A stretch of DNA of 64,000 nt from Flavobacteriaceae bacterium (GTDB lineage: Bacteria > Bacteroidota > Bacteroidia > Flavobacteriales > Flavobacteriaceae), in assembly GCA_020435965.1 (NCBI GenBank), contig JAGQYS010000010.1, forward strand, positions 12,687-76,686. The letters run 5' to 3'. Made by a program: the position numbers and the translations under genes. A model generated the notes under the pieces. The model searched no databases, had not been told where the DNA came from, and was given only the letters and a program-made list of their open reading frames with translations. This document shows positions 22,655 to 59,680 of this stretch, piece by piece; position 1 is the first letter of the stretch; every line of letters starts with the position of its first letter.

Positions 22655-23059
22655 ATGAGTGAAAAAACAGTAACACCTAGAGGCGCTTATCCACACACAA
22701 AACGTGCTGGCGATTTTATTTTTGTGTCAGGCACAAGTTCACGTCGTGCAGACAATACCATTGCAGGAGTTGATATTATTGACGAAATGGGAACAAAACG
22801 CCTGAATATTGAAGTACAAACCAGAGAAGTACTTCAAAACATAGAAAAAAACCTCATAAAAGTAGGTGCATCAATGAAAGACGTAGTTGATGTAACTTCC
22901 TTTTTAGTGAATATGAATGACTTTGCTGGCTACAATAAAGCCTATGCAGAATTTTTTAATGCCGAAACAGGACCAGCTCGAACTACTGTTGCAGTACACC
23001 AACTTCCACATCCTGATTTGGTGGTTGAAATTAAGGTAATGGCATACAAACCACAATAA
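22655..23059 (+). CDS. RidA/YjgF-family enamine/imine deaminase (candidate 2-aminomuconate deaminase)
   Basis: 134 aa; YjgF/RidA pattern ([11 protein letters not shown]...[12 protein letters not shown]...VEIKVMA). The deaminase role is inferred from context only. Confidence 0.85.
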
Positions 23060-23067
23060 AAATAGTC

Positions 23068-23142
23068 TGTCATTCCGACAGAGCGCAGCGACGAGGAATC
23101 TCATCATTGGATTTCTCAATTGTTCCTCATGTTGAAATGACA
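23068..23142. repeat. REP/MITE-like palindromic element, same family as 47715-47792
   Basis: tgtcattccgacagagcgcagcgacgaggaatctc...atttctcaattgttcctcatgttgaaatgaca; termini TGTCAT/ATGACA; shares the right half almost verbatim with the element at 47715. Confidence 0.85.
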
Positions 23143-23222
23143 ATACTTAATATTAAAATTACCTATATTTAGATAACCAACCTCAAACCAACCTTAGCTT
23201 AATCACTTTTTAATTATAAACT

Positions 23223-26227: not shown

Positions 26228-26234
26228 ATTAAAG

Positions 26235-30435: not shown

Positions 30436-30510
30436 TGTCACCTCGAGCGCAGTCGAGAGGTCTTTTTTATAAAATAATTTTAATAGGTCTCGACTGCGCT
30501 CGACCAGACA
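30436..30510. repeat. REP/MITE-like palindromic element with GAGCGCAGTCGAGA core
   Basis: tgtcacctcgagcgcagtcgagaggtc...(AT-rich loop)...ggtctcgactgcgctcgaccagaca: 16-nt perfect arms (tcgagcgcagtcgaga); creates the false N-terminal extension of ORF 30435. Confidence 0.85.
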
Positions 30511-30515
30511 TTGTA

Positions 30516-42874: not shown

Positions 42875-44149
42875 TTAGGTTTTTATAGTCAATATTTCAT
42901 GCCATTGGGTTGTGTAACGAGCACTACGTTCTTCTTTAATCAGTTCCCACTCCTTTATTCTAGTACCAATAGAACCAGACATCACTTTTGATTTTCCAAA
43001 TTTAGAGTTTAGCCTATCTATAGTGTCCACAAGCCGAGCATCATTATATCTATTTTGGCTTTCAAATAAATTGCCTTGCACATATTGCTCTGGTACAATG
43101 CCACTAAGGCACACACCTACTTTTTTGTAACGAAATCCAGGTTTATAAATGGCGTGCAGGGCTTTTTTTGCTTCAGTTATTAAAATAAAGGTGTTGTTGG
43201 TTGGTATAGCAAGTGTGCTGGTAATACTGTTAGAATATTGTTTATCTGTTTTACTATGGTAATTGGTATGTAAAAATACTTGTACATACGTTGCGCACGA
43301 TTTTTGGCTACGTAATACTTCGGCAACTTCTGCAATATAATACGAGCAAGCTTCTTCTATCAGGCTTATATTTTCAAGTCGCTTTCCAAAGGATTTGGCA
43401 GTTCCAATATTTTTTTTGGGTTTTGGCTCTGTCATAAAATCAATACAAGGGTCACCTTGTAGTTCATTCCAAAGGCGTTCGCCAACCACTGTCATTTGTT
43501 TACGCACCCAATGTAGTGGCAACTGTGTAAAGTGATAAGCCGTAACAACACCAACAGCATTCAATCGTTTTGCGTGTTTTCTTCCTATTCCCCAAACATC
43601 CTTAATAGCTGTACTTTTGAGTGCCTCTATCCTCTTTTCTTCAGAGTCTATAACATATACCTGATCGGTTTCCGAGGTTTTTTTCTTAGCAATACGATTT
43701 GCTAGCTTTGCCAACACCTTTGTTGGTGCTATACCTACACCAACTGGCAATCCAGTATGCTTAAAAACTGTGTTTTTTATCTCTTGCCCATAATCTGTAT
43801 AGGAGGTAGTATGGCATACACCTGAAAGGTCTAAAAAAGATTCATCAATACTGTAAACTTCCACCAAAGGTGAAAATGTTCGGAGGATATTTATAACGCG
43901 TTGGGACATATCTCCATACAACGTATAGTTAGAAGAAAAGCAGGTTATACCATTTTCGCCCAAAACTTTTTTGATTTTGAAAACAGGTTCATAAAGCGGT
44001 ATGTGCGTTAGTGCCTTTGCTTGTTTATTTGCAGCAATGATACAACCGTCGTTATTGCTCAATACCACAACTGGTTTATTCCATAAATCTGGTCTAAAAA
44101 CCTGCTCGCACGAAGCGTAAAAACTATTGCAATCTACCAACGCAATCAT
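42875..44149 (-). CDS. umuC: Y-family translesion DNA polymerase, UmuC-like
   Basis: Track ORF starts at 44185, but the family start MIALVDCNSFYASCEQVFRP is ATG 44149-44147, which forms an ATGA overlap with the umuD-like stop. SIDESFLD catalytic block present. Confidence 0.9.
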   Translation of the reverse strand: MIALVDCNSFYASCEQVFRPDLWNKPVVVLSNNDGCIIAANKQAKALTHIPLYEPVFKIKKVLGENGITCFSSNYTLYGDMSQRVINILRTFSPLVEVYSIDESFLDLSGVCHTTSYTDYGQEIKNTVFKHTGLPVGVGIAPTKVLAKLANRIAKKKTSETDQVYVIDSEEKRIEALKSTAIKDVWGIGRKHAKRLNAVGVVTAYHFTQLPLHWVRKQMTVVGERLWNELQGDPCIDFMTEPKPKKNIGTAKSFGKRLENISLIEEACSYYIAEVAEVLRSQKSCATYVQVFLHTNYHSKTDKQYSNSITSTLAIPTNNTFILITEAKKALHAIYKPGFRYKKVGVCLSGIVPEQYVQGNLFESQNRYNDARLVDTIDRLNSKFGKSKVMSGSIGTRIKEWELIKEERSARYTTQWHEILTIKT

Positions 44150-44511
44150 GAGACAGCGTGTATAATGTAAGTAATTATTCCCCAAATGGTGTAAGGTTCA
44201 GATGGCCTTTTAGAAAAGCGCTTTACCTTAAATTCGCCTTCTTCAACAGCTAGTACCAAACCGTTTTCTTTTGGTGTTAATGACCTGTCAATTATCAAAA
44301 CATCGTTATTGTGGATATTAAACCCTGAAAGACCATCACCATCAATACGAACAAAAAATGTGGCGTCTGTATTTTTTATAAGATGCTCATGCAAATCTAT
44401 GGTATGCTCCAGATAATGTGTGGCAGGACTTGGGAAACCCGTTTGTTTGGAGACCTCTGGAGTATGCTTTGCTTTTGCTCTTTTAAGTTTATTAAATGCG
44501 ATTAAATCCAT
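44146..44511 (-). CDS. umuD: UmuD-like S24 peptidase-fold protein with Gly at the catalytic serine position
   Basis: 121 aa; gapless alignment with E. coli UmuD from GFPSPA to VKK. Residue 60 is Gly (codon GGT at 44334-44332) where UmuD has Ser60; Lys97 equivalent retained; positions 24/25 are Thr-Gly instead of Cys-Gly. Confidence 0.8.
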   Translation of the reverse strand: MDLIAFNKLKRAKAKHTPEVSKQTGFPSPATHYLEHTIDLHEHLIKNTDATFFVRIDGDGLSGFNIHNNDVLIIDRSLTPKENGLVLAVEEGEFKVKRFSKRPSEPYTIWGIITYIIHAVS

Positions 44512-44631: not shown

Positions 44632-45606
44632 TTAGCTTTCAGGAAACCCATTTAAAGCGAGGGTTTCTAATTCTTTATTTTCATTTTCGAAAATAAAAAA
44701 CACTTTCAATTCAGGATGTGTTTTTAAAAGCTCTGTTACCTTTTCAATTCCCATAGCTTGAAATGCAGTAGCATAAGCATCAGCAGTCATGCAATCATTA
44801 GCTATTACAGATACGCTTAGCACATTTGTTTTACTTGGATAACCTGTTTTGGTATCAATGATATGTGCATAACGATTGCCATTTTCATCAAGTTTAAATT
44901 TTCTATAAGTTCCAGAGGTTGCCATAGCTCCATCTTCTAAATTTATAGCCTTAATAACAGATTGAGAGCCATCAAAATTTGGTTTGTCAATACCAACCAT
45001 CCAATTGGATTGCTTTTCTTTGTTTGTGCCTTTGCAGCGTATCTCTCCTCCTATTTCAACGAGATAGTTATTAACATTTTGAGATTCTAAAAATTCAGCA
45101 ATCACATCTACAGCATAGCCTTTGGCAATAGCATTAAAATCTAAAAACGTATTCAGATTCTCTTTTGAAATAGCGTTCCTTCTCAACGTTACCTTATCTA
45201 AACCAACGGAAAGCATCAAACTATCAATTTTTAGGCTATCCAAGGATACAATTTTCCCTTCAGGCCCAAAATCCCAAGCGTTTACAACAGCTCCAATAGT
45301 TGGGTCAAAAGCTCCATAAGTAGCGTCGTAAATTGCTTTTGAAGTATTAAAAACATTGGTAAAGTGCGCATCAACCTCAACAGCTTCATTTCTGTTTATT
45401 TTAGAAATATCTGAGTTTTCAATGTAAGTTGACATGGATTTGTTTATCACATAAAACAGGCTGTCAAACTGCTTTTCGTAATTTTCATTACTATCATAAA
45501 TTACGCTATAAGAAGTACCAAAAACCTGACCTGAAAGTTTAGTGTTTTTAGGCTCTTTCTTACAAGAAAAAATTGATATCAATAATAAAATTATAACCTT
45601 TTTCAT
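44632..45606 (-). CDS. apbE: FAD:protein FMN transferase (flavinylates NqrB/NqrC), lipoprotein
   Basis: 324 aa; lipobox LISIFSC; ATSGTYRKF...YAHIIDTKTGYP and ADAYATA blocks typical of ApbE. Confidence 0.9.
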   Translation of the reverse strand: MKKVIILLLISIFSCKKEPKNTKLSGQVFGTSYSVIYDSNENYEKQFDSLFYVINKSMSTYIENSDISKINRNEAVEVDAHFTNVFNTSKAIYDATYGAFDPTIGAVVNAWDFGPEGKIVSLDSLKIDSLMLSVGLDKVTLRRNAISKENLNTFLDFNAIAKGYAVDVIAEFLESQNVNNYLVEIGGEIRCKGTNKEKQSNWMVGIDKPNFDGSQSVIKAINLEDGAMATSGTYRKFKLDENGNRYAHIIDTKTGYPSKTNVLSVSVIANDCMTADAYATAFQAMGIEKVTELLKTHPELKVFFIFENENKELETLALNGFPES

Positions 45607-45667: not shown

Positions 45668-46045
45668 TCAATTTAAATTAGTATCAACAACTTGAATGCC
45701 ATTGTACTCAATAAGATAATCTTCGTTTAAGTAAATTGGTAAATCTTCACCTTTAGGATTGCCAAGACCTACTCCTGCATACAACACTTTAGCATCTTTT
45801 TCCCTAGCATGCTTTTTAAAGGTCTCCATCCAAACCACATCATAATTATTTGGGTTTTCAGGTAAGATTACAGCTCTAACTATCACAAAAAAGTACTGGC
45901 TATTTTTGTCAACACATACAAACTGAGGATGTTTTTTTAGTTTACTGTTTATGGCAACAAACTCAAAGCCTCTGTTTTCCAGATCTTTACCAACATGATT
46001 CATGGCCAAATTATGTAATTCTTGTGTTGTAAGTGCAATACTCAT
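45668..46045 (-). CDS. Hypothetical cytoplasmic protein
   Basis: 125 aa; no signal peptide or recognised motif; directly upstream of apbE on the same strand. Confidence 0.35.
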   Translation of the reverse strand: MSIALTTQELHNLAMNHVGKDLENRGFEFVAINSKLKKHPQFVCVDKNSQYFFVIVRAVILPENPNNYDVVWMETFKKHAREKDAKVLYAGVGLGNPKGEDLPIYLNEDYLIEYNGIQVVDTNLN

Positions 46046-46155
46046 AATGCAAAAATACTATTTATAAAATGATAGATAAAATTGTTTAACTTTAAATGCT
46101 ACAACCAACCAAAGCTACACGTTAACTAAATACTACTTACAACTAGTGTAAGTAT

Positions 46156-46938
46156 ATGATTAAATTTTTTCGTCGTATTAGACAACGATTGGTTTCTGAA
46201 AGCAAATTTTCTAAATACATATTATACGCCATTGGTGAAATTATTCTCGTAGTTATCGGAATTCTTTTAGCGCTTCAAATAAATAACTGGAATCAACAAC
46301 GAATTGAAGACAAAAAAGAGATAGAACTACTTATCGATCTAAAAGATGAATTTAAAAATAATTTAACCGAATTGGAAGAGTCTATTAACATCAATAAAAA
46401 AGTTACTCAATCCTGCGTTGACCTTACCAATATTATCAGGTCAAATTCATTATCCAAAAAACCTGATGTTGTAGATAAACTATTGATCTCAATTGGCAAT
46501 TTTAATTCTTTTGATGCCAAAACTGGAGTTTCAAGCGAAATAGTTAACTCTGGCAAATTGAGCATTTTAAAAAACGAAGCCCTAAGAATACAATTAAACA
46601 ATTGGTTAACCATAATTATTGACTCTGAAGAAGATATTCTTTTTAGGTCAGACAACTACACGATTAGCCTAATGCCTTTTTTGATGAAGCGGTTTCCGCT
46701 CGCAAATGGAGAGCTTACCAAAAAACTACCTTTTGATAGGAACAACAAATTGCAAACATACCAAGAAAAATCGCCTTTTGAAGCTGATTTAAACCAAGAG
46801 GATTTAATGGAATTTGAAAATCAGATCTGGCACCATAAACATAATCAAGATTATGTTGCTATCAACGAACTAAACCTAAAGGATTTTATTCTGGCCACAA
46901 TTGGTATGATTGAAAACGAGTTAAACAAAAAGTTATAA
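46156..46938 (+). CDS. MIKFF...NNWNE family single-pass membrane protein, copy 5
   Basis: 260 aa; MIKFFRRIRQRLVSESKFSKYILYAIGEIILVVIGILLALQINNWNQ. Confidence 0.8.
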   Translation: MIKFFRRIRQRLVSESKFSKYILYAIGEIILVVIGILLALQINNWNQQRIEDKKEIELLIDLKDEFKNNLTELEESININKKVTQSCVDLTNIIRSNSLSKKPDVVDKLLISIGNFNSFDAKTGVSSEIVNSGKLSILKNEALRIQLNNWLTIIIDSEEDILFRSDNYTISLMPFLMKRFPLANGELTKKLPFDRNNKLQTYQEKSPFEADLNQEDLMEFENQIWHHKHNQDYVAINELNLKDFILATIGMIENELNKKL

Positions 46939-47679
46939 ATGATTAAATTCTTTAGAAAAATACGCTACAACCTCATGGAAACAGGAAAAACTGGTAAATA
47001 CCTAAAATATGCCATTGGCGAAATTATTCTCGTAATGATTGGTATTCTTTTAGCACTACAAGTAAACAATTGGAATCAAGATCGATTAAACACTATCGAA
47101 AAAAAGGAGTTGCTCTCAAAACTACACTTTGAGTTTAAATCCAATAAAAAAGCTATTGAAACTTTTAGAATTGCTGAAGACAAAGCCATGAGTTCAAGTA
47201 TTGAATTAATCAATCTTGTTGGAGCTACTAAACAAGAGTTATCTAAACATAATCTCGATAGCTTATTTTTTGAATCTTTTCCTGCAAATGAATTGGCTTT
47301 TGCTAATAATGCTGTAAACGATATAGTACAAAATGGACATCTTAATCTTTTTAAAGACGAAGAAATTACAACATTGTTGTACCAATGGAATTCGCTTTCC
47401 GAGATTAGAAAAACCCGATTCGAAAAACTGGATTTATGGAACAACGAGCAGTTTATCCCCTTTTTATTGCCTTTTATTTCAATGAGGGAAATGGACAAAT
47501 ATTCCAATTACAAATGGACTGGAAAATCTAAAGTAAAGCCAGATTATTACCCTTTGTTCCAGAAAGTTGAATTTGAAAACCTATTGGACAATTCTTTATG
47601 GTTACATCAACAGATTGTTGAGAGGCTTAATGAAACTGAAAAACTGATTGATGAGATAATCAATGCCACAAAACCTTAA
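46939..47679 (+). CDS. MIKFF...NNWNE family single-pass membrane protein, copy 6
   Basis: 246 aa; ATG immediately follows the copy-5 stop (TAAATG); N-terminal 46 aa are identical to copy 7 except for 1 residue. Confidence 0.8.
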   Translation: MIKFFRKIRYNLMETGKTGKYLKYAIGEIILVMIGILLALQVNNWNQDRLNTIEKKELLSKLHFEFKSNKKAIETFRIAEDKAMSSSIELINLVGATKQELSKHNLDSLFFESFPANELAFANNAVNDIVQNGHLNLFKDEEITTLLYQWNSLSEIRKTRFEKLDLWNNEQFIPFLLPFISMREMDKYSNYKWTGKSKVKPDYYPLFQKVEFENLLDNSLWLHQQIVERLNETEKLIDEIINATKP

Positions 47680-47685
47680 CTATTT

Positions 47686-47714
47686 ATGATTAAATTCTTT
47701 AGAAACATATCAAC
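47686..47714 (+). pseudogene. Orphan 5' stub of a MIKFF-family gene, truncated at the MITE-like element
   Basis: atgattaaattctttagaaac (MIKFFRN) is identical to the copy-6 start for 20 nt, then runs straight into the repeat at 47715. Confidence 0.6.
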
Positions 47715-47792
47715 TGTCATGTTGAGCGCAGTCGAGACATCTCATTATGAGATTTCTCAATCGTCACTTCGTTTCCTCATGTCGAAATGACA
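47715..47792. repeat. REP/MITE-like palindromic element, same family as 23068-23142
   Basis: tgtcatgttgagcgcagtcgagacatctcattatgagatttctcaatcgtcacttcgtttcctcatgtcgaaatgaca. Confidence 0.85.
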
Positions 47793-47798
47793 AACAAA

Positions 47799-48518
47799 AT
47801 GATAAAGTTCTTTAGAAAAATACGATACAACCTTATGGAAACAGGAAAAACTGGTAAATACCTAAAATATGCCATTGGCGAAATTATTCTCGTAATGATT
47901 GGTATTCTTTTAGCACTACAAGTAAGCAATTGGAATGAAAAACGCAAAGACAGGATAAAAGAGCAATCCGTTTTATCATCAATCAATAAAGAATTTAAAA
48001 TGAACAAAATTCAATTTGATTCTGTTTTATACTTTCATAAAAAGGCTTATAATGGCTGCAACAAATTGATTGCAATGTTTCCCATTGATATTGAAAGGGA
48101 TAATTTAGATACCATTTCAAAGCACCTTTGGGATGCTGCATATAATTGGACGTTTAACCCTTCACAAGGAACTATAAACAGCATTATAAATACATCATCT
48201 TTTGATATTATAAGCAATGATGAGCTTAGAGGTTTGCTGGTATCTTGGTCAGACATCGTTTTGGATTTACAAGAAGATGAAATTCAGAATAAGAAAGTAG
48301 TATTTGAGCAGATGGATCCTTTTTTTGCAGGAAACATTGACTATAATTTTAATTTAAAAGACAAGCGAAATAATTTAAACGTACTAGAATCCATTAAATT
48401 TGAATATCTCATTAGGTTAAGGCAAGCTCTTCTTTGGGAACTTTTTAAACCAGGAGCAGAAATTGAAGTTTTAGAGAAAAACCTAGAAAGAATTATTGAA
48501 CTTACATCAGAAAAATAG
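47799..48518 (+). CDS. MIKFF...NNWNE family single-pass membrane protein, copy 7
   Basis: Track ORF begins at 47787 inside the repeat terminus (MTNK); the family start MIKFFRKIRYNL is ATG 47799. Confidence 0.8.
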   Translation: MIKFFRKIRYNLMETGKTGKYLKYAIGEIILVMIGILLALQVSNWNEKRKDRIKEQSVLSSINKEFKMNKIQFDSVLYFHKKAYNGCNKLIAMFPIDIERDNLDTISKHLWDAAYNWTFNPSQGTINSIINTSSFDIISNDELRGLLVSWSDIVLDLQEDEIQNKKVVFEQMDPFFAGNIDYNFNLKDKRNNLNVLESIKFEYLIRLRQALLWELFKPGAEIEVLEKNLERIIELTSEK

Positions 48519-48538
48519 AAACTCTTAAACCAACACAC

Positions 48539-49966
48539 ATGAAAAAAGCTTTAAAACTATTAGGAATACTAATACTCATCGTTTTAGCTGTCTTAATTTT
48601 TAATACCTTAAGACTAAGCTCAAAACAAGTAGCTCCACAAGCCTTAGAAAGTGTCAACCTACCAAGTGATGCCTTTCACAACCTTTCAAAAGCCATACAA
48701 TTTCCAACCGTTTCTTTCAGTGAAGATGCCATTCCAGACTCAACAGCATTTTTTGGTTTTCACAGATTTCTTGAAGAAACCTTTCCGTTAACACATACTA
48801 ATTTATCTCTAGAAAAAATAAACGATTACAGTTTACTCTATAAATGGGAAGGTTCAGACGCTTCAAAAAAACCTATTATCTTAATGTCACATCAAGACGT
48901 AGTTCCTGTTGATGAGCCAACTTTAAACGATTGGGAAGCCGAGCCGTTTTCAGGTAAGATTACTGACACGCATATTATTGGTCGTGGCACAATGGACGAT
49001 AAAGGTACATTGATAGGATTATTAGAGGCTGTGGAAAAATTACTCGAAGAAGGTTTTGTACCAACTCGAACCATTTATCTTGCTTCTGGACACGATGAAG
49101 AAGTTGGTGGAAGCAATGGTGCTGCTGCCATCGCAGCACATTTAAAAGCAAAAGGAATACATGCAGCCATGACACTCGATGAAGGTGGTTTTATTGCTGA
49201 AGATTTAGTTCCAGGAGTAAATAATCCTGTTGCTATGATTAATCTATCCGAAAAAGGTTTTGCTTCATTTAGGTTGATTGTAGAAACCACTGGAGGACAC
49301 AGCTCGCAACCTCCACGCGAAAATACCATTGGCATGTTGGCACAAGCCATTGTAGATTTAGAAAACAATCAGTTACCTTACAAATTGGTTAATCCTGTTG
49401 ATTACCAATTAGAATATATGGGAGCTGAACTACCCTTTTTTCAAAAAATGGCTTTTGCCAATCCTTGGTTGTTTAAAAAACCAATATTGGAAGCTTTAAA
49501 TGCGCATACCACGACTGCTCCAACCATAATTGATGGAGGAGTGAAAAACAATGTGATTCCAACAGTTGCTGAAGCAACCATTAATTTTAGAATTCTACCT
49601 GGTGAAACCATAGAATCTACACAGCAACATATTGAAGCTGCCATTTCAGATAAAATAAGAGTAGAACCTGTTGGTTTTTTAACCAATCCATCTCCTGTTT
49701 CAAGTATCGATTCTGAAGCTTTTAAAATATTAGAACAAACCATTCGTGATATGTTTCCAACAAGTATTGTTGTTCCAGGTTTAGTTGGTGGTGGCACTGA
49801 TGCCAGATATTTTTATGACATTTCAGATGATGTGTATCGTTTTTACCCTATTCGTATCGGTCCAGACAGCATGACCAGATTTCATGGTATTGACGAAAAA
49901 ATAAGTAAAGACAATTACAAAGAGATTATTGAATTTGCCTACCATTTAATAAAAAAGTTTAATTAA
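48539..49966 (+). CDS. M20/M25/M40-family metallopeptidase with N-terminal membrane anchor
   Basis: 475 aa; TM (LLGILILIVLAVLIF); SHQDVVPV, GRGTMDDKG, GHDEEVGG metal-binding blocks. Confidence 0.85.
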   Translation: MKKALKLLGILILIVLAVLIFNTLRLSSKQVAPQALESVNLPSDAFHNLSKAIQFPTVSFSEDAIPDSTAFFGFHRFLEETFPLTHTNLSLEKINDYSLLYKWEGSDASKKPIILMSHQDVVPVDEPTLNDWEAEPFSGKITDTHIIGRGTMDDKGTLIGLLEAVEKLLEEGFVPTRTIYLASGHDEEVGGSNGAAAIAAHLKAKGIHAAMTLDEGGFIAEDLVPGVNNPVAMINLSEKGFASFRLIVETTGGHSSQPPRENTIGMLAQAIVDLENNQLPYKLVNPVDYQLEYMGAELPFFQKMAFANPWLFKKPILEALNAHTTTAPTIIDGGVKNNVIPTVAEATINFRILPGETIESTQQHIEAAISDKIRVEPVGFLTNPSPVSSIDSEAFKILEQTIRDMFPTSIVVPGLVGGGTDARYFYDISDDVYRFYPIRIGPDSMTRFHGIDEKISKDNYKEIIEFAYHLIKKFN

Positions 49967-49983
49967 TGATAAAGTTTTTTAGA
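49966..49983 (+). pseudogene. Orphan 5' stub of a MIKFF-family gene overlapping the M20 stop (TAATG)
   Basis: atgataaagttttttaga = MIKFFR, then unrelated sequence and a stop after 33 codons. Confidence 0.55.
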
Positions 49984-50075
49984 TTATCGAAACAAAATTT
50001 TGCTACTGCAAAATCAAATGTCCAATGGACATTTGGTGGAGATAGCCGCTTGCGGAAAAAATAGAAACTAAAAGT

Positions 50076-50879
50076 ATGATAAAATTCTTCAGAAAAATAA
50101 GATACAATCTTATGGAAACTGGTAAAACTTCAAAATATTTAAAGTATGCTATTGGCGAAATTATTCTTGTAGTTATTGGTATCCTCATTGCTTTAAGCAT
50201 TAATAATTGGAATGAGTCAAGGAAAGAAGCTATTCAAGAAACTGCAATACTAAACCAATTACATATTGAATTTAGAAGCAATTTAAGACAATTGGATGAA
50301 AAAATTGATTTGAAAAAGGAAGCGATAAATTCATCATTACAGCTATTTAAATATATTGATTTTCAAAATCTTCGAAATAAAGATAGCGTTGATTATCATT
50401 TAGCAAGGACATTGCCATTTTCTACATTTGACCCAATAGTAAATGACTTGGCTAGTTCAGGAGAATTAAGAATGATAAAAAACGATAGTTTAAAACAAAA
50501 GCTCTCTTTTTGGACGTCTGAAGTAAAGGATTTACGAGAAGAAGAGGTGGCTTGGCAAGAGCATAGAAATAATAAATATGAACCTTTCCTTATTAAGCAT
50601 TATCAACTAAGAACCATTAGAAATATCGCCAATAAAACGAACGTTTTAGGAAAATATTTAATTGAAGACAAGTCGACCATCATGAAACCTGTAATTGGTG
50701 TCACTAAACATCCTGAAAATTTTAACCTATTGTTGAATCACCCAGACTTTGAAGATCATATAGAAAGGTGCTTAACAAAAAATAATCATGCGCTTAACCA
50801 AGCTTCTATTTTGAGAAAAAGATTAATAGAAATATTAGACATATTAAATTCTGAATTAAAGAATACAAACAATGATTAA
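50076..50879 (+). CDS. MIKFF...NNWNE family single-pass membrane protein, copy 8 (paralogue of copy 4)
   Basis: 267 aa; MIKFFRKIRYNLMETGKTSKYLKYAIGEIILVVIGILIALSINNWNE; the C-terminal domain aligns along its whole length with copy 4. Confidence 0.8.
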   Translation: MIKFFRKIRYNLMETGKTSKYLKYAIGEIILVVIGILIALSINNWNESRKEAIQETAILNQLHIEFRSNLRQLDEKIDLKKEAINSSLQLFKYIDFQNLRNKDSVDYHLARTLPFSTFDPIVNDLASSGELRMIKNDSLKQKLSFWTSEVKDLREEEVAWQEHRNNKYEPFLIKHYQLRTIRNIANKTNVLGKYLIEDKSTIMKPVIGVTKHPENFNLLLNHPDFEDHIERCLTKNNHALNQASILRKRLIEILDILNSELKNTNND

Positions 50880-51593
50880 ATTCTTTCGTCATATTCGTAA
50901 ATCACTCCTTATGGAAAACAAAACAGGAAAGTACTTTAAATACGCTATTGGCGAAATTGTACTCGTTGTAATTGGTATTCTTATTGCTTTAAGCATTAAT
51001 AATTGGAATGAAAAACGAAAAACAGAAGAAAAAAAACCCATAGGTTTTTATTAGGCTTAAAAGCCGATTTACAAAACGATTTAGAAGCCATCAATTTTGT
51101 GATTGATATCCAAAATTCACGATTTAATGCTATTAAAGATTTAATTGATTTTAGCAACTCGCCAAATGTAAAAACCATCATTGAAAATGACTCCATGAAA
51201 GCATCACAAGGTGGTAGGAATTTTACTTTTTTTCCTGTTGTTGGTTCGTATAAAGCAGCCAGCAATACAGGATTAATTGATAATATAAAAGATGAACAAC
51301 TCAAAAACAATATTTTAAACTTATATGAACATTTATATGTAAGAATAAATTATAATGGAGAAATTAATGATAATAGATACGAAATGGTTGATTGGGAAAG
51401 CAGGAACTATATTGATTATACAAAAAAGGAACTTGTGTTTGATAAGCGTGGACTGCTCGATAAGGATTTCGTGAATCAATTAGGCTTTTTAAATAGATTT
51501 GTAAGAGTATATATTGGACGATGTGATGACACAAAATTAGCGATAGAAACAACCTTAAAGGAAATAAACAATTATTTAATGGTTTATGATTAA
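50872..51593 (+). pseudogene. MIKFF-family copy 9, split by a frameshift at an A8 tract
   Basis: ORF 50872-51054 carries the anchor module and stops 6 codons after A8 (51029-51036). Frame 0 is open from 51012 and continues as ...HRFLLGLKADLQNDLEAINFVIDIQNSRFN... into ORF 51099-51593, matching the juxtamembrane pattern of copy 3 (YLKGIKSDLTKD). One extra A or two fewer As would restore about 241 aa. Confidence 0.75.
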
Positions 51594-51612
51594 ATGCTTT
51601 AAAAACTTATAA
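51586..51612 (+). pseudogene. Orphan 5' stub of a MIKFF-family gene at the array end
   Basis: atgattaaatgctttaaaaacttataa (MIKCFKNL*); its ATGATTAA supplies the stop codon of copy 9. Confidence 0.55.
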
Positions 51613-51724
51613 ACCCATCACCTAAAAAAGATCTTCAGCTCTTTAAATGTGTTAAAAACCACTAATTCTATAAACCAAAATAGTCTTTTTTTGTATCTTA
51701 ATCGTATCATAAATACATCAGGTT

Positions 51725-52186
51725 ATGAAATCAGCATCTCGTTTAGACCAAGCCATTGCGAAACTTTACAACGCTTTTAATAATAATACCTTACATCCTG
51801 AATGCTCCAAGAATTGTGCTGTTGGGAATATCCTTGATAATAGCGATTTTTGGAAACACATATCAGATAATCATGGTTCATTACAACTGAATTATGTTGG
51901 TTTGGTCAATCAAAAAATTGGCAAACGCTTTAATGGTTATACACCTTATGAGCTGCTACAGATTGAAGCGGTCTTTCTAAAGGCTTGCAACTATGAGCTT
52001 CCATTTCATCATCAAAACAAAAAGCCAAAAAACCCTACAGATAAAGATGTTTTGTTTAAAGGTCTTTCTGCCGTGGTATCATTTTTATGCCAATTAGATG
52101 GCATTGACAATGTGATGGATTATTCCAAGATATTTAAATTAAAAAATGGTACACCTTTTTATGAATTAAATGAAATTCTTATATAA
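51725..52186 (+). CDS. Hypothetical cytoplasmic protein
   Basis: 153 aa; no motif recognised; convergent with nqrF. Confidence 0.35.
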   Translation: MKSASRLDQAIAKLYNAFNNNTLHPECSKNCAVGNILDNSDFWKHISDNHGSLQLNYVGLVNQKIGKRFNGYTPYELLQIEAVFLKACNYELPFHHQNKKPKNPTDKDVLFKGLSAVVSFLCQLDGIDNVMDYSKIFKLKNGTPFYELNEILI

Positions 52187-52222
52187 AACAGAAACCCAAC
52201 AGAAAATGTTGGGTTTTGTTTT
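52186..52222. terminator. Bidirectional hairpin terminator between the hypothetical gene and nqrF
   Basis: aaacccaac / gttgggttt stem with a 7-nt loop, flanked by an A-rich run on the left and a T-rich run on the right. Confidence 0.75.
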
Positions 52223-52237: not shown

Positions 52238-53545
52238 TTATCCTCCAAAGTCATCAAATCTGATGTGCTCATCTGGGATTCCAAAATCTTCTCCCATTTT
52301 CTGAACGGCTTTGTTCATTAATGGTGGTCCACAGAAGTAAAGCTCAATATCTTCTGGAGCTTCATGATGATTTAAGTAGTTGTCTATAACACAATTGTGT
52401 ATAAATCCAACAAAACCATCTCCAGGAGCATCAATATTTTCTTTTACTTTCCAGTTATCTTCTGGTAAAGGCTCAGATAAAGCAAGGTAGAACTTAAAGT
52501 TTGGGAAATCGCGCTCTAAAGCTTCAAAATGCTCTAAGTAGAACAACTCACGTTTAGATCGTCCTCCATACCAATAGGTTACTTTTCTACCAGTTTTTAA
52601 GGTTTTAAACAAGTGATATAAATGTGAACGCATTGGTGCCATTCCTGCTCCACCACCAACGTATAGCATTTCGCTTTCAGATTCGTTGATAAAGAATTCT
52701 CCATAAGGTCCTGAAATGGTAACTTTATCACCAGGTTTTTGAGCAAAAATATAAGAAGATGCTACACCTGGATTTACGTCCATCCATCCATTCTTATTAC
52801 GATCCCAAGGTGGAGTTGCAATACGAACGTTTAACATGATCTCACGTCCTTCAGCTGGATAAGAAGCCATAGAGTAAGCTCTTTCAACTGTTTCAGTGTT
52901 TTTCATCACTAAAGGCCAAAGCCCAAATTTATCCCATTCTGCTTGAAATTTATCTGGTGTTTCGTGCTCTTCAGGATGCGCAGTAATATCTATATCTGAA
53001 TATTTAATTTCGCATGGAGGGATTTCAATTTGAATATATCCTCCAGCTTTATAGTTCATATCTTCAGGAATACGAACAACAAATTCTTTAATAAACGAAG
53101 CTACGTTATAGTTTCTTACCACTTCAGCTTCCCATTTCTTAATACCAAAAACTTCTTCTGGAATGGTGATTTCCATGTCTTGTTTTACTTTGACTTGACA
53201 AGACAAACGTGCGCCATGCTGTAATTCTTTACGTGTAAAGTGTGGTGTTTCAGTAGGCAAAGCTTCTCCACCACCTGACAATACATGACATTCACATTGA
53301 ATACATGTTCCACCACCACCACATGCAGATGGTAAAAATATTTTTTCACCACCTAAAGTAGCTAACAAACTGTTTCCAGAGGCAACTTCAATTTCTCTCT
53401 CACCATTAATTAAGATCTTTACAGGACCTGAAGGTGATAATTTTTGTTTTACAAATAATAGTAATGCAACCAATAATAAGGTTAAAACCAAAAATGCAGC
53501 AACTGTTGCTAAAATTGTTCCTAATGTACTTGCGGCTAATATCAT
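52238..53545 (-). CDS. nqrF: Na+-translocating NADH:quinone oxidoreductase subunit F
   Basis: 435 aa; N-terminal TM, 2Fe-2S ferredoxin motif CGGGGTCIQC, FAD (RAYSMAS) and NADH (GGGAGMAP) motifs. Confidence 0.95.
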   Translation of the reverse strand: MILAASTLGTILATVAAFLVLTLLLVALLLFVKQKLSPSGPVKILINGEREIEVASGNSLLATLGGEKIFLPSACGGGGTCIQCECHVLSGGGEALPTETPHFTRKELQHGARLSCQVKVKQDMEITIPEEVFGIKKWEAEVVRNYNVASFIKEFVVRIPEDMNYKAGGYIQIEIPPCEIKYSDIDITAHPEEHETPDKFQAEWDKFGLWPLVMKNTETVERAYSMASYPAEGREIMLNVRIATPPWDRNKNGWMDVNPGVASSYIFAQKPGDKVTISGPYGEFFINESESEMLYVGGGAGMAPMRSHLYHLFKTLKTGRKVTYWYGGRSKRELFYLEHFEALERDFPNFKFYLALSEPLPEDNWKVKENIDAPGDGFVGFIHNCVIDNYLNHHEAPEDIELYFCGPPLMNKAVQKMGEDFGIPDEHIRFDDFGG

Positions 53546-53546
53546 G

Positions 53547-54296
53547 TTATTCCTCTTCTTTTAAAGTGTTATTAGCTAATTCTTCTGTTTTCTCTTCTGT
53601 TGAAGTAATTATCTTTTCAGATTCTATTTGTTCTTTTTGAACCAATACTGTTTTTTCTTCTTTTACTTCTTCATCTCCTCCAGTAAGCATTCCACCGAAG
53701 CTCATAAAACCAATAGCCATTAAACCAGTAATGATGAAAGTAATTCCTAATCCTCTTAAAGGTGCTGGCACATTTGAGTATCTGATTTTTTCACGTATTG
53801 CTGCTATTGCTAAAATGGCTAAAAACCATCCAATTCCAGACGATACACCATAATTAAATGCCAAACCAAATGTTGCAATTTCACGTGATTGCATAAATAA
53901 CGAGCCTCCTAAAATTGCACAGTTTACAGCAATTAATGGTAAAAAAATACCAAGTGAGTTATATAACGATGGTGAAAATTTCTCTACTACAATCTCTACT
54001 AATTGTACCATGGTTGCAATAGTTGCGATAAACATGATGAATGAAAGGAAACTTAAATCGTAATCTGAATATTCTGCACCTAACCATTTACCTAATGCTC
54101 CTGGTTGCAAAATATATTGATCTAATAACCAGTTTAAAGGCACTGTAATGGCCAATACAAATATTACAGCAGCTCCAAGACCAACAGCTGTTGATACTTT
54201 TTTAGATACTGCAAGGTATGAACACATTCCTAAGAACGTGGCAAATACCATGTTGTCTATAAATATTGATTTGAAAAATAATTCTATATGTTCCAT
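53547..54296 (-). CDS. nqrE: Na+-NQR subunit E with a roughly 45-aa acidic C-terminal extension
   Basis: 249 aa; NqrE/RnfA-type core to ...[13 protein letters not shown], then [44 protein letters not shown]. Confidence 0.9.
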
Positions 54297-54307
54297 AATA
54301 TTTTATT

Positions 54308-54955
54308 CTAGTTGTCTTCAATTAATGCTGGGTTCTTGCTACGTTGCACCCAAATTATAATCCCTACAACAATTAATGCCATTGGTGCCAATAACATAAA
54401 TCCGTTATTTTCGTAACCAATACTATATAATCCTGTTTTTGCTATAGGATCTCCTAAAACTTTAAATCCTAGCAAAGTACCTGATCCTAACAATTCTCTA
54501 AAGAATCCTACAATGATTAAGATAATTCCATATCCTAATGCATTACCAATTCCATCTAAGAAAGATCTCCAAGGTCCATTTCCTAAAGCAAAGGCTTCAA
54601 AACGTCCCATAATGATACAGTTGGTAATAATAAGTCCGATAAAAGCTCCAAGCTCTTTACTTAATTGATAAGAGAATGCTTTTAAAACCTGATCTACGAT
54701 AATTACTAAAGCAGCTACGACAGTTAGCTGTACAATAATTCTGATTTTTGATGGAATGATGTTTCTAATCAGTGAGATAACAACGTTACCAACACCTAAT
54801 ACAAATATTACAGAAACTGCCATTACAATGGACGCTTTTAACTGCGCTGTAATTGCCAAAGCCGAACAAATACCTAATACCTGAATAGTAATTGGGTTAT
54901 CGTCTGCTAAAGGATCTAATATTAATTTGCTGTCTTTTTTAGATAAAAGTCCCAT
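54308..54955 (-). CDS. nqrD: Na+-NQR subunit D
   Basis: 215 aa polytopic; NqrD/RnfE pattern (LGICSALAIT, ITNCIIMGR). Confidence 0.92.
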   Translation of the reverse strand: MGLLSKKDSKLILDPLADDNPITIQVLGICSALAITAQLKASIVMAVSVIFVLGVGNVVISLIRNIIPSKIRIIVQLTVVAALVIIVDQVLKAFSYQLSKELGAFIGLIITNCIIMGRFEAFALGNGPWRSFLDGIGNALGYGIILIIVGFFRELLGSGTLLGFKVLGDPIAKTGLYSIGYENNGFMLLAPMALIVVGIIIWVQRSKNPALIEDN

Positions 54956-54958
54956 AAA

Positions 54959-55711
54959 TTAATTGTTTTTTAAAGTTTTAAAATAAGGTAAGTACAGCTT
55001 TAAATCTTTTTTCAGCATTGCTGCAACACCATCTCCTGTAATGGTTGCGCCAGCGATAGCATCAACCTCATTATCTGTTTTGTCATTATTTAACGGATCT
55101 GCATTACTTTTTGAAATGTTAATTCCAACAAAGTTTCCAGATTCATCCAATAAATGTTCTCCAATAAAATCGTCCATAAAGAAACGTTCTTTTATGTTTG
55201 CTCCCAGACCAGCGGTTTCTCCTTGATGGTCAAAATAAGCTCCTTGAACAACCATATTCTCATCCATAGCTACATAAGCCCAAACCGCATCCCAAAGTCC
55301 TTTTCCTCTAATTGGTGCTATATAATATGTTTTACCATCTTTTTCACCAATAAATAGTGGTAACCGTCTTTCTTTTCCTTCCTTAGCATTAGACTGCTCT
55401 TTCTTAACATCTATTAAATAAGCTTGGTCATCTTCTTTAACATCTGTTCCGTTAGTGATTACAATTTGATGTGTAATGTATTTTGAAAACTCGTCTCCTA
55501 CTTTTGCATCTTCAATAAAAGCAACGCTGCTTTCATCATTTTCATGAATTCCCATGGCATATAGGATGTTTTGTTGCTTTTCTATGCGTTTGTTTTCATC
55601 AATTTTTGGTCTCAATGAAGATGCAACAAAAGCTAATAAAGAACCTACTACTACTACCATACCAATGGCAAATAGTATTGTATATACATTTTTATCTGTT
55701 TTCTTTTCCAT
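54959..55711 (-). CDS. nqrC: Na+-NQR subunit C (FMN-binding)
   Basis: 250 aa; one N-terminal TM; FMN-attachment region DAIAGATITGDGV. Confidence 0.92.
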   Translation of the reverse strand: MEKKTDKNVYTILFAIGMVVVVGSLLAFVASSLRPKIDENKRIEKQQNILYAMGIHENDESSVAFIEDAKVGDEFSKYITHQIVITNGTDVKEDDQAYLIDVKKEQSNAKEGKERRLPLFIGEKDGKTYYIAPIRGKGLWDAVWAYVAMDENMVVQGAYFDHQGETAGLGANIKERFFMDDFIGEHLLDESGNFVGINISKSNADPLNNDKTDNEVDAIAGATITGDGVAAMLKKDLKLYLPYFKTLKNN

Positions 55712-55713
55712 TG

Positions 55714-56919
55714 TTAAGCCGTTTTTGTTTTAAGACGCTTAAGTCTACGTTTAACATTACCTTGAACCACATAATGATCAATAGTTGGTGCAAATACGTT
55801 CATTAATAAAATAGCAAGCATTACACCTTCAGGATAAGCTGGGTTGAACACTCGAATCATAATTGAAATAAAACCAGCTAAAAACCCATAAATCCATTTT
55901 CCTTTATTGGTTTGTGAGGCAGTAACAGGATCTGTTGCCATGAACACTGTACCAAAAGCAAAACCACCTATTATTAAGTGATGCCACCAAGTGGTACTCA
56001 TTAAGCTATAAAATTTACTGCTTTCTCCTATCCATCCTGAATCTACAACTCCATTAAAAATTAATCCCATGGCTAATCCACCTAATGTCATAGATAGCAT
56101 GATTCTCCAACTTCCAATTTTTGTGAATATTAAGAACAAACCTGCTAGTAAGATTAATAGTGCAGACGTCTCTCCAACAGAACCTGGAATAATTCCGTAG
56201 AACATATCCATTATGCTATAAGAAGCTTCATGGCCTTGAGCTAAACTTCCTAAAATAGTTTCTCCTGAAATTGCATCAGGTGTTCCAGCGCGTTCTACTG
56301 CACCATGAACCCAAACTTTATCACCAGACATCCATGTTGGATAAGCAAAGAATAAAAAGGCTCTAATAGTTAAAGCTGGGTTAAGAATATTCATTCCTGT
56401 ACCACCAAAAACTTCTTTACCAATAACAACTCCAAAAGCGACTGCAACAGCGAGCATCCAAAGAGGAATATCAACAGGTACAATTAATGGCACTAACATT
56501 CCTGTTACCAAATAACCTTCTTCTACTTCGTGTTTTTTGATGATTGCGAATAAAAACTCTATTCCTAATCCAACTCCATAAGATACAATCACTAAAGGTA
56601 GCACTTTCCAAAGTCCTATTACTAAGTTATCCCAAGACCAGAAAATTGGATCCAAAAATCCGCTTGCTCTTGAAATATCGCCTAAGGCTAAGTGGTGCTG
56701 ATAACCAGCGTTAAACATACCAAAGATTAAACATGGAATCAATGCCATGATAACCGTATTCATTGTACGTTTTAAATCGTCGGCTGCTTTTATATGAGTT
56801 CCACCATGAGTGGTCTCATTTGGTAAGTATAAAAACGTATGGATTGCGTTAAACGCAGGCGCCATTTTGGTTCCTTTATACTTTTCTTTTAAATTGTGTA
56901 AGTTTTGTTTTAAGCCCAT
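55714..56919 (-). CDS. nqrB: Na+-NQR subunit B
   Basis: 401 aa polytopic; NqrB/RnfD pattern incl. PDAISGETILGS flavinylation-site region; TAATG overlap with nqrA. Confidence 0.93.
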   Translation of the reverse strand: MGLKQNLHNLKEKYKGTKMAPAFNAIHTFLYLPNETTHGGTHIKAADDLKRTMNTVIMALIPCLIFGMFNAGYQHHLALGDISRASGFLDPIFWSWDNLVIGLWKVLPLVIVSYGVGLGIEFLFAIIKKHEVEEGYLVTGMLVPLIVPVDIPLWMLAVAVAFGVVIGKEVFGGTGMNILNPALTIRAFLFFAYPTWMSGDKVWVHGAVERAGTPDAISGETILGSLAQGHEASYSIMDMFYGIIPGSVGETSALLILLAGLFLIFTKIGSWRIMLSMTLGGLAMGLIFNGVVDSGWIGESSKFYSLMSTTWWHHLIIGGFAFGTVFMATDPVTASQTNKGKWIYGFLAGFISIMIRVFNPAYPEGVMLAILLMNVFAPTIDHYVVQGNVKRRLKRLKTKTA

Positions 56920-58274
56920 TATCCTATCTCTTTAAGCATTAAGTCTAAACCTTCTCTTATAATTTTTTGATGTGGTTGTTTAGACACACACACAAATTCT
57001 GTTAATGCAAAATCTTCAGGAGCTACTTCATACATACCTAAAGCCTCCATTTCATCAAGGTCTTTATACATACAAGCCTTTAAAATTTGCATTGGATAAA
57101 TATCTAAAGGAAACACTTCTTCATAAGTTCCTGTAGTCACAAAAGCACGATGTTCACCATTGGTATTGGTATTTAGATCGTATTTTTTCTTTGGGTTTAA
57201 CCAAGAAAATGTCAGAGCTCGTGAAGTAGAAATTTTATTGAAAACTGGTTTGTTCCATCCGAAGAATTCATAATCATCGCCTTCTGGAATTACTGTAATG
57301 GTGTTACTATAATAGTCAAGGTAACCATCAGGTTTAATCTGCTTCCCGCTTAATACATTTCCTGAAATGATTCTAACATTGGCATCTTTTTCAACACCAT
57401 GATCGTAAATCATTGTTGCTACTTCACAACCTAATTTTGTAGTAAAGTATCTTGGTTTTTTAACTGAGGAACCTACTAAAGCCACAACACGTTCTGCATT
57501 GAATTTTCCAGTAACTAACAATTCTCCAATAATTACAAGGTCTTGTGCATTAACTGTCCACACTGTTTCACCCTTATTAATAGGATCAACCTTATTGATT
57601 AAAGTGCCAACATTTCCTGATGGATGTGGTCCAGAAACTTTGTGAATGGTTACTCCTGCTAAATTACCTAAAGGAGAGTTAGCATTCTTTCCTACAGAAA
57701 TATGAACTTTCCCTTCTGTTAATTTTCCTAAGGCAGTCACAGCAGCTTGCAACTCTTTTTCTTTACCTTGAAGTGTAAAATCTAAATCAGCACTTAAAGG
57801 AGCAGACGCATAACCAGAAATAAAAATTGCTTTTGGTAATTTGCTTGGATTTGCAATCACATCATAAGGACGTTGCTTAATAAAAGGCCAACAACCAGCA
57901 GTTAATAATTTTGATTTTACCTCATCTGCAGAAGCACTATTAACATTTAATGATCCAAAATCTTGATATGCTTGTTCTTTATCTGCCTGAATTTTAATAG
58001 ATAAAATTCTTCGTTTTTCACCACGTGCTATCTCAATAACTTCACCAGATACTGGAGAAGCAAATTTTATTGCTTCATTAGATTTATCGTAAAAAATGGT
58101 TTCACCAGCTTTTACTTTTGATCCTTCTTTAGCAACAAGTTTTGGAATAACACTGTGAAAGTCTTCAGGTCTAATGGTGTAAAAATTGCTTATAATAGCA
58201 GCTTCTTTAGCCTTTTCGGCTTCACCTTTAAGATTAATGTCTAGACCTTTTTTGATTCGAATGTCGTTTGACAT
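56919..58274 (-). CDS. nqrA: Na+-NQR subunit A
   Basis: 451 aa; IRIKKGLDINLKG start typical of NqrA; first gene of the six-gene minus-strand operon. Confidence 0.93.
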   Translation of the reverse strand: MSNDIRIKKGLDINLKGEAEKAKEAAIISNFYTIRPEDFHSVIPKLVAKEGSKVKAGETIFYDKSNEAIKFASPVSGEVIEIARGEKRRILSIKIQADKEQAYQDFGSLNVNSASADEVKSKLLTAGCWPFIKQRPYDVIANPSKLPKAIFISGYASAPLSADLDFTLQGKEKELQAAVTALGKLTEGKVHISVGKNANSPLGNLAGVTIHKVSGPHPSGNVGTLINKVDPINKGETVWTVNAQDLVIIGELLVTGKFNAERVVALVGSSVKKPRYFTTKLGCEVATMIYDHGVEKDANVRIISGNVLSGKQIKPDGYLDYYSNTITVIPEGDDYEFFGWNKPVFNKISTSRALTFSWLNPKKKYDLNTNTNGEHRAFVTTGTYEEVFPLDIYPMQILKACMYKDLDEMEALGMYEVAPEDFALTEFVCVSKQPHQKIIREGLDLMLKEIG

Positions 58275-58429: not shown

Positions 58430-59680
58430 ATGACCTCAAAATATTTTAGTCTATTCATCACATTTTTTTGGTTTCAATTTATGGCAAGTCAAGTTGCTGA
58501 AGAAGTTGAACCTCCTTATTACATTAAAACCATTACTTTTAAAAGTAATACAAACGAAAGCGAATTGCCCATTTTAAGGTTAGGTGAGCGTTTGCAATTG
58601 GAGTTTGATGTATTGAATAATGAAGAAGCCGATTTTTACTATGTGATAGAACATTACGATTACGATTGGACGCCTTCACGACTTATAAAATCAAGATATT
58701 TACAAGGATTTGATGACCAACGTATTGTGAATTATGAAAACTCGTTTAACACATATCAATTGTATTCGCACTACAGATTGCAAATTCCAAACAATCAAAC
58801 TCAATTATTGGTTTCAGGGAATTATATGATGAAAATTTTTGATGAAAATGGTGAGTTGATGTTTAGTAGAAAATTTATGGTTTATGAAGATTTGGCAACT
58901 GTTGGTGTTGCAGTAAAGCGTTCTCGTGATGTGAGATATATTAACCAAAAGCAATCGGTTGATATCAGTATTGGTTCACTCAATTTAAATTTTGTTAACC
59001 CTAAGCAAACTGTCAATGTTGCCATCGTTCAGAATAACAACCTAAAAACTGCTATCACTGGTTTAAAACCTCAATATACACTTGGCAATGAGTTGCTTTA
59101 CAAATATGACACTGAAACCAGTTTTTGGGGAGGAAATGAGTACTTATTCTTTGAAAATAAAAATGTAAGAGGCGCTAATATTGGTGTACAGTTTTTTGAC
59201 TTAAAAGATTTGTACCACAACTATTTATACACAGATATTGTTAGAGCTAACAGGCCTTATACTTACAATCCAGATATTAATGGAAACTTTCTAATAACTG
59301 CGTTAGACACAGATAACGTTGACATTGAAGCCGATTATACTATACTTCATTTTTCGCTACAACATCCAGAAATGTTATTAGACAAAAATATACATGTATA
59401 TGGTAATTTTAATAATTACGCTATTACTGATGATACCAAAATGACTTTTAATCCTGATACCAATGTTTATGAAACACGTTTACTTTTAAAGCAAGGTTTC
59501 TACAATTACAAATATGTGGTGGTTGATAAAAACAATAATCTTGATGAAGGAGCTATTAGTGGGAATTTTGACCAAACAGAAAATAATTATAAAGTATTGG
59601 TCTATTATAGAGATTTGGGTGGTTTATACGACAAGATTATTGGTGTTGGTGAGGCTTCATCGACTTTAATTACCAATTAA
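58430..59680 (+). CDS. Secreted beta-rich protein, possibly DUF5103 / type IX secretion plug family
   Basis: 416 aa; signal peptide (FITFFWFQFMASQ). Length and N-terminal pattern (IKTITFKS...LPILRLGE.L.LEFD) resemble my recollection of DUF5103; not verifiable here. Confidence 0.4.
   Translation: MTSKYFSLFITFFWFQFMASQVAEEVEPPYYIKTITFKSNTNESELPILRLGERLQLEFDVLNNEEADFYYVIEHYDYDWTPSRLIKSRYLQGFDDQRIVNYENSFNTYQLYSHYRLQIPNNQTQLLVSGNYMMKIFDENGELMFSRKFMVYEDLATVGVAVKRSRDVRYINQKQSVDISIGSLNLNFVNPKQTVNVAIVQNNNLKTAITGLKPQYTLGNELLYKYDTETSFWGGNEYLFFENKNVRGANIGVQFFDLKDLYHNYLYTDIVRANRPYTYNPDINGNFLITALDTDNVDIEADYTILHFSLQHPEMLLDKNIHVYGNFNNYAITDDTKMTFNPDTNVYETRLLLKQGFYNYKYVVVDKNNNLDEGAISGNFDQTENNYKVLVYYRDLGGLYDKIIGVGEASSTLITN

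Follow-up and report, generated by a model that had tools for sequence, protein, structure and literature searches.

In Vibrio cholerae, the apbE gene is situated downstream of the nqr operon, and flavinylation of NqrB and NqrC requires it (PMC12052999), a background statement that the first-pass annotation of the DNA considered here had made and that this source supports. A second point of reference is the Pfam family DUF6090 (PF19578), an uncharacterised flavobacterial membrane-protein family, homologues of which are labelled 'DUF6090 family protein' at NCBI. We analysed a stretch of 64,000 nt from a Flavobacteriaceae bacterium (GCA_020435965.1, contig JAGQYS010000010.1, positions 12,687-76,686 of the forward strand), referred to below as the window, in which five tandem DUF6090 genes (46156-51593) stand between apbE and the nqrFEDCBA operon. 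These genes resemble the Pfam family in length and in their N-terminal module; the family entry is silent on function, on arrays and on any intergenic element. Our reading, to which we give a probability of about 0.7, is that the genes are cargo at a variable junction, that they form a head-to-tail array subject to turnover, and that the array contains a short leader-like element, here called S.

The locus was annotated from the list of open reading frames (ORFs) together with Pfam and NCBIfam profile searches of the window proteins. On one side, the nqrFEDCBA operon (52238-58274, minus strand) has all six subunits in order; nqrF, nqrB and nqrA pass the NCBIfam equivalog cut-offs, and nqrE, nqrD and nqrC give Rnf-Nqr and FMN_bind matches. 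On the other side is apbE (44632-45606, minus strand), which encodes an FAD:protein FMN transferase (Pfam ApbE, 279 bits; the NCBIfam ApbE match is under the equivalog cut-off), and the window has in this way an Na+-NQR operon with an ApbE-family flavin transferase nearby. Next to it, apbE has a conserved upstream partner, the 125-aa gene hyp125 (45668-46045, minus strand), for which family searches were negative: it has no match in Pfam, NCBIfam, PADLOC or PHROGs, and its PDB sequence matches are at chance level only. The nqr operon and hyp125-apbE are intact, separate transcription units.

To place this interval in context, 80 Flavobacteriaceae loci were fetched around NqrF homologues of 87-94% identity and annotated with the window proteins and the DUF6090 hidden Markov model. 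hyp125 is found downstream of nqrF, on the same strand, in 62 of the 80 loci (45-90% identity), and apbE follows it directly wherever apbE falls inside the fetched DNA. The ancestral Flavobacteriaceae order is nqrF > 125-aa gene > apbE. As in V. cholerae, apbE comes after nqrF in 20 of the 62 loci, with only the 125-aa gene between them; Flavobacteriaceae differ from V. cholerae by this conserved gene, and the window differs further by 6.2 kb of genes on the opposite strand. The gap between nqrF and hyp125 ranges from 20 nt to 9.3 kb: it is 229 nt or less in those 20 loci, about 0.6 kb (580-665 nt) in five, which contain the 153-aa gene only, and 0.8-9.3 kb in the rest. The genes filling it fall into 44 clusters, 25 of them singletons. 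The most frequent occupants are the 153-aa gene, present in 22 loci, a family with members of up to 316 aa, present in 14, and DUF6090, with 12 copies spread over 6; the 153-aa gene is also the commonest first occupant of the gap. In the window the gap measures 6,192 nt, and the strand orientation fits an insertion between nqrF and hyp125 rather than an inversion.

Because the cargo differs across the 62 loci, the junction is a variable hotspot, with the same conserved flanks and different content among related genomes, and the first-pass expectation that the nqrF-apbE interval would not be one conserved gene set held in this synteny comparison. The same annotation had also proposed that the family had expanded into two functionally linked neighbourhoods, the other being the first DUF6090 array of the window (copies 1-4, 23223-26227, plus strand), which is flanked by a kynureninase / FAD-binding monooxygenase / RidA group on one side and by an aldehyde dehydrogenase on the other (19875-27674). 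Other genera have a variety of unrelated genes at this junction, and both places are better read as permissive junctions between transcription units. hyp125 is always paired with apbE, which makes it a candidate lineage-specific NQR-maturation or accessory factor.

The cargo in the window consists mostly of the second DUF6090 array, together with an M20 peptidase and the 153-aa gene. Its copies, all on the plus strand, are c5 (46156-46938; 46.6 bits), c6 (46939-47679; 21.0 bits), c7 (47799-48518; 32.7 bits, with an upstream ATG at 47787 that lengthens the ORF), c8 (50076-50879; 46.9 bits), which is a paralogue of copy 4, and c9 (50872-51593), which is frameshifted into frames at 50872-51054 (35.2 bits) and 51099-51593 (44.3 bits). 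Five of these six frames score above the DUF6090 gathering score of 23.5 bits; c6 is just below it and is assigned to the family by its N-terminal 50 aa, which are 92% identical to those of c7. The M20 family peptidase (48539-49966, plus strand; Peptidase_M20 115 bits, M20_dimer 64.7 bits) has a hydrophobic N-terminal stretch. ORFs, profiles, a motif search and a repeat search recovered every item of the first-pass inventory, namely the five copies, three short 5' stubs, the peptidase, apbE with its small gene, and nqrFEDCBA. They added the 153-aa gene (51725-52186, plus strand), which is convergent with nqrF and has no Pfam or NCBIfam family match, and, in the interval between these two genes, a bidirectional terminator-like hairpin (52191-52217) identified by a consensus match only. 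NCBIfam has no model for DUF6090, for hyp125 or for the product of the 153-aa gene. The start motif ATGATHAARTTYTTYMG has 11 occurrences in the window, where chance would give 0.21: four in the first array, five in the second locus and two at stubs (47686 and 49966).

The DUF6090 proteins are about 240-270 aa long, with a single membrane helix and an outer domain predicted to be all-helical. They begin with a basic tail of about 27 aa, after which come the membrane helix with an invariant G27-E28, an NNWN motif and a helical domain of about 200 aa, which is predicted to face the periplasm; the basic character of the tail suggests an N-in/C-out topology. The nine window copies are 64-92% identical to one another over the first 50 residues and 10-26% over the remainder, except for c4 and c8 (59%). 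Where residues are conserved, identical codons are used in a mean fraction of 0.53, and synonymous saturation under the codon usage of the genome would give 0.49, which argues that purifying selection, and not ongoing homogenisation, holds the N-terminal 50 residues. The sole outlier is the c6/c7 pair (0.88), which has a common 5' tract of about 147 nt at 94-95% nucleotide identity, the remainder of the two proteins being 18% identical; judged from these comparisons, recent gene conversion is visible only in this pair. Full-length orthologues of the c8 subtype (54-94% identity) are present in Robiginitalea, Winogradskyella, Psychroflexus and others, and c9, once its frame is repaired, aligns over its full length with intact orthologues (228-243 aa) of other genera at 53-67% identity. 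Such distributions indicate that the outer domains are old, diverged subtypes conserved across genera, and not hypervariable. The DUF6090 profile match in c5, c7 and c9 runs well past the N-terminal module (in c9 to position 174 of 182), and therefore the C-terminal regions of at least these three belong to the family. A profile built from the eight intact window copies matched 19,001 clusters (50% identity) at E <= 0.001, and nearly all of its top matches are 210-280 aa long and aligned over most of their length.

Successive genes are joined in a few recurrent ways. The junction ATGATTAA is found at c1/c2 and c8/c9, ATGA at c3/c4, and TAATG at c2/c3 and at the M20 gene, whose stop codon overlaps the ATG of stub 2 in this manner; c5 and c6 abut directly. 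The start of the next gene often encodes the final Asp and the stop codon of the preceding one, which suggests that the array genes would be co-transcribed and translationally coupled through these fixed overlapping junctions. DUF6090 arrays of 2-13 genes occur in other genomes and in unrelated contexts, several of them with 8-nt overlaps. The c8-type orthologues of other genera are likewise members of arrays (two to six genes each, with 8-nt overlaps in several) that are set in unrelated surroundings.

The content of the array differs in a close relative. A metagenome contig, L085, was found via a c8 homologue (P0001, 94% identity), and its nqr genes, M20 gene and c8 are 88-90% identical to those of the window at the nucleotide level (M20 88%). 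Its order is M28 peptidase fragment, 37-aa ORF, a stub with a palindromic element resembling repetitive extragenic palindromic (REP) sequences, X1, X2, M20, X3, X4, X5, a 195-aa gene and nqrF. Only the M20 gene, in the same position, and X4, which corresponds to c8 (95% amino-acid identity outside the N-terminus), are common to this array and the window locus; the latter has no orthologue of X1, X2, X3 or X5, and the unrelated 195-aa gene takes the place of the 153-aa gene. At the site of stub 2, L085 has X3, a full 244-aa gene whose start overlaps the end of M20 in the same TAATG. The array thus undergoes turnover between close relatives. Arrays would change by the gain and loss of complete units, the differences lying at the borders of genes, and recombination between the conserved 5' modules would be the simplest route; the c6/c7 conversion tract, the poly-A frameshift of c9 and the stubs might be by-products of this process. 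Arrays at the same junction in other genera were considered as orthologues of the window copies and rejected, since their similarity is mostly N-terminal and the best full-length match is 47%. The first-pass description of an accessory, recombinogenic family stands in part: the variable site, the turnover seen in L085 and the c6/c7 tract agree with it, and the old subtypes and the purifying selection on the N-terminus do not.

Recombination at the 5' modules could also serve a contingency or phase-variable locus, in which an A8 run switches c9, through slipped-strand mispairing or through slippage of transcription or of the ribosome, and reshuffling changes the outer domains that are expressed. 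The frameshift of c9 lies exactly in such a run (51029-51036, within the reading frame, in the slippery pattern A_AAA_AAA) and splits the gene into ORFs of 60 aa and 164 aa; the C-terminal 164-aa frame is intact and keeps residues invariant in orthologues, and a frame-shifted reading at A8 gives a protein 53-67% identical end to end to the intact orthologues. The recently converted 5' module of c6 and c7 would also fit switching. Against this, the orthologues of c9 are intact at the A8 position, where they read ..KT-EEKT.., and four independent same-strain metagenome assemblies (99.99-100% identical) agree with the window in gene order, in the A8 and in the ORFs of 60 aa and 164 aa, with no difference in tract length, although assemblies this similar are a weak test of within-species variation. 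The subtypes are conserved across genera and not diversifying, and the interval has neither strong inverted repeats nor a recombinase gene. We consider this explanation improbable. A chimeric origin of c9, suggested by nucleotide similarity to L085 that stops near the frameshift, was rejected, because that similarity is the conserved 5' module and the repaired c9 aligns end to end. Two contigs that end inside c5 (L003 and L004) were likewise rejected as structural variation between strains, because contigs of the same samples (L091 and L092) continue in the same order and the break falls at the 140-nt c6/c7 repeat.

That one junction carries differing arrays from genus to genus, and that arrays are found in unrelated contexts elsewhere, might also be expected of a mobile cassette similar to an integron or to a miniature inverted-repeat transposable element (MITE), with a dedicated recombinase that moves DUF6090 units at S or at the conserved gene start. 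The hairpins of S, and the direct repeats of the gene start on either side of it, would suit such a cassette. However, neither the interval nor the surroundings of the arrays examined were found to contain an integrase, transposase or recombinase ORF. At most junctions one gene follows the other with no spacer, S is lacking in the majority of arrays and occupies one junction here, and the composition is not atypical (GC 0.30-0.36 in the interval against 0.33-0.36 in the flanks), so that we regard a cassette of this kind as very improbable. An invertible shufflon is not indicated either: all copies are on one strand, inverted repeats in the interval are weak only (20-27 nt at 72-82% complementarity), and the interval has no invertase gene. 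Nor does the locus look like a polymorphic toxin with orphan modules, as no Pfam toxin domain was found and no small genes are interleaved between the copies.

The S element (49957-50078, plus strand) is about 120 nt long and comprises stub 2 (49966-49983), a 92-nt spacer with two hairpins and an invariant block GCCGCTTGCGGAAAAAATAGAAAC, and the ATG of c8; it starts with the first 6-9 codons of the family and ends at the ATG of the next gene. The window copy is 90% identical to positions 10326-10446 of a contig from a different genus (L088), where it lies between two array genes. An exact 22-mer from S was found in 10 metagenome loci, always immediately before a DUF6090 ORF. With a covariance model made from seven copies, 17 copies were recovered in 11 loci; every copy has the ATG of a DUF6090 gene as its end, whether the copy stands at the front of the array or in its interior. 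One array of 13 DUF6090 genes (L101) has three S copies. The proposed structure has four helices, in which 94% of cells are paired against 37-52% in slid controls, and compensatory changes affect four pairs and 13 cells, chiefly in the 11-bp hairpin 2. The 92-nt body has a mean pairwise nucleotide identity of 83%, against 76% for the adjacent 147-nt coding module, and the genes downstream of S copies belong to different subtypes that are at most 32% identical. The mini-ORF of S (MIKFFRLSK...) reaches ...KNRNKKYD* in six of 15 copies and stops at ...KNRN* in one more; it is broken in the remaining copies, that of the window included. Because it is broken in so many copies, coding is not the conserved property of S. 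With Rfam 15, no match reached the gathering scores in the window and none overlapped 49957-50078 at E <= 1; at that threshold there were two chance-level matches in all, neither of them in S.

These observations bear on whether the stubs, the frameshift and the spacers are simply neutral debris, with S as a selfish repeat or a passenger of gene conversion. Several features would fit such decay: c9 is frameshifted, stub 3 and similar stubs elsewhere resemble remnants of a lost downstream neighbour, L085 has a whole gene at the site of stub 2, REP-like elements have invaded stub 1 and some S copies, and the mini-ORF of S is often lost. Yet the body of S is more conserved than the selected coding module, even though it precedes genes of low identity, its hairpin pairs are kept by compensatory changes, its position relative to the gene start is constant, and four of the five DUF6090 copies in the locus are intact. 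We consider plain decay unlikely, and stub 2, which had been grouped with the others as one of three orphan 5' stubs, is part of a conserved element and not a private deletion scar.

S looks like an internally collapsed DUF6090 unit that kept both repeat ends, with the opening and closing codons of the gene on either side of two hairpins. At the head of an array or in its interior, directly upstream of a gene, it might act as a leader or promoter within the array or as an uncoupling spacer. Comparison with L085 would be consistent with an ancestor of the order M20-X3-S-c8, from which X3 may have been lost in one line and the body of S in the other, via the short start-codon repeats. A more specific proposal, which we offer as a tentative and rather doubtful one, is that S is an undescribed, family-specific cis element, a co-opted leader or promoter that splits arrays into sub-operons and whose start repeat is a homology patch, and that the arrays represent a modular, turnover-prone repertoire of envelope proteins.

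Stub 1 (47686-47714, plus strand) consists of the opening codons of a DUF6090 gene (MIKFFRNIS..) and is followed by a REP/MITE-like palindromic element, TGTCAT..GAGCGCAGTCGAGAC..ATGACA (47712-47793, strand not assigned), with a homologous copy at 23069-23145, upstream of copy 1, and a related copy at 30440-30515. The same layout of stub, REP-like element and gene is present in L085 (about 715-790), and in L100 and L102 the S element is interrupted by an insert with the core TTGAGCGCAGTCGAAAT, similar to the REP-like element. Stub 3 (51586-51614, plus strand), which was found by the repeat search, is more degraded than stubs 1 and 2, and its ATGATTAA gives the stop codon of c9; stubs like it lie at or just past the array ends in L047 and L016. 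The insert at stub 1 and stub 3 were tried as degraded S elements; this is unproven, as the alignment has only the stub and the REP-like core in common. As a side observation, the REP/MITE-like family TGTCAT[T/G]..GAGCGCAGTCGA..ATGACA lies upstream of or within DUF6090 array junctions, with one copy at an unrelated intergenic site, and its translation gives spurious peptides such as ..IPAFAGMT. A further motif, AACCAAC(C), stands 40-60 nt upstream of the first gene in both window arrays (46100-46112 and 23175-23200). In several metagenome loci (L096-L098) the same motif shortly precedes the S stub, and it could be a promoter or regulator site for DUF6090 arrays.

As to function, the AlphaFold2 model of c8, made from a 57-sequence alignment of its subtype, is all-helical (pLDDT 83, pTM 0.68), with a continuous helix at 18-95 that includes the membrane segment and long helices at 137-175 and 223-265. 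Our best guess, held with low confidence, is that DUF6090 proteins may be periplasmic adaptor or binding proteins that are anchored in the inner membrane. Their shared N-terminal module would be the part that a common membrane partner recognises, and specificity would come from the outer domains.

Several points weigh against the reading proposed here. Searched against the PDB with Foldseek, the c8 model matched only generic coiled-coil and axonemal structures (TM-score at most 0.28), and the sequence-profile search of the PDB only a chance-level match (E 0.39). PADLOC gave no match for DUF6090 and PHROGs weak chance-level matches only, and a literature search for 'DUF6090' or 'PF19578' found no paper mentioning the family. 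The membrane topology and the translational coupling are both read from sequence, and recombination at the 5' modules is deduced from where the differences lie. As for S, the model gave only weak matches (E >= 0.18) and no convincing copy in the 80 nqrF loci, and S was not found upstream of the c8 orthologue in L085; since it is absent there, not every array needs S. Its conservation is partly ascertained, because copies were found by the exact 22-mer and by a model made from those matches, and the pair counts given above are indicative only, as they come from a model-fitted alignment of word-selected sequences. The exact Bacteroidetes -7 box (TAnnTTTG) is absent from S and from the regions upstream of c5, c7 and c8. 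Exact candidates occur only upstream of hyp125 and nqrA and inside c7, 137 nt upstream of M20, and a sigma-70 scan, the consensus of which does not apply to Bacteroidota, found 27 sites against 30.7 in shuffled sequence. Lastly, the link of stubs 1 and 3 to S is weak.

Some neighbouring genes may be recorded here. A umuD-umuC-like pair (42875-44511, minus strand; Peptidase_S24 and IMS/Y-family polymerase domains) is directly downstream of apbE. The gene divergent from nqrA (58430-59680, plus strand) has a T9SS_plug_1st domain according to the Pfam matches for L089 and is unrelated to the DUF6090 finding. Outside the window, L088 has a RidA-like gene and an M28 peptidase near a six-gene DUF6090 array, and in Winogradskyella aurantiaca (L087, 9057-11234) a two-gene array precedes the gene of a 725-aa protein that has TPR and guanylate-cyclase domains.

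The DUF6090 family is large, with about 19,000 clusters at 50% identity, and has been catalogued but not studied. To this the present analysis adds that overlapped arrays are typical, that the conserved part comprises the cytoplasmic tail and the membrane helix, that the outer-domain subtypes are old, and that array content shifts between close relatives, all of which gives function studies a concrete start. For NQR biology, apbE is often uncoupled from nqr in Flavobacteriaceae, and hyp125 becomes a candidate NQR-maturation factor. The hotspot itself is an ordinary kind of feature; the S element is the new lead, as a candidate regulatory motif. Compared with known variable hotspots between core genes, the window locus is alike in having conserved flanks (nqrF on one side, hyp125-apbE on the other) and variable cargo, and differs in that it has no integrase, tRNA or other mobile-element hallmark and in that its cargo is an array of paralogues and not a typical island. 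Compared with REP sequences and bacterial interspersed mosaic elements (BIME), Correia-type elements and 5' leader RNAs, S is alike in being short, in having hairpins, in occurring several times per locus and in being conserved across genomes, and differs in that it is found only before genes of one protein family.

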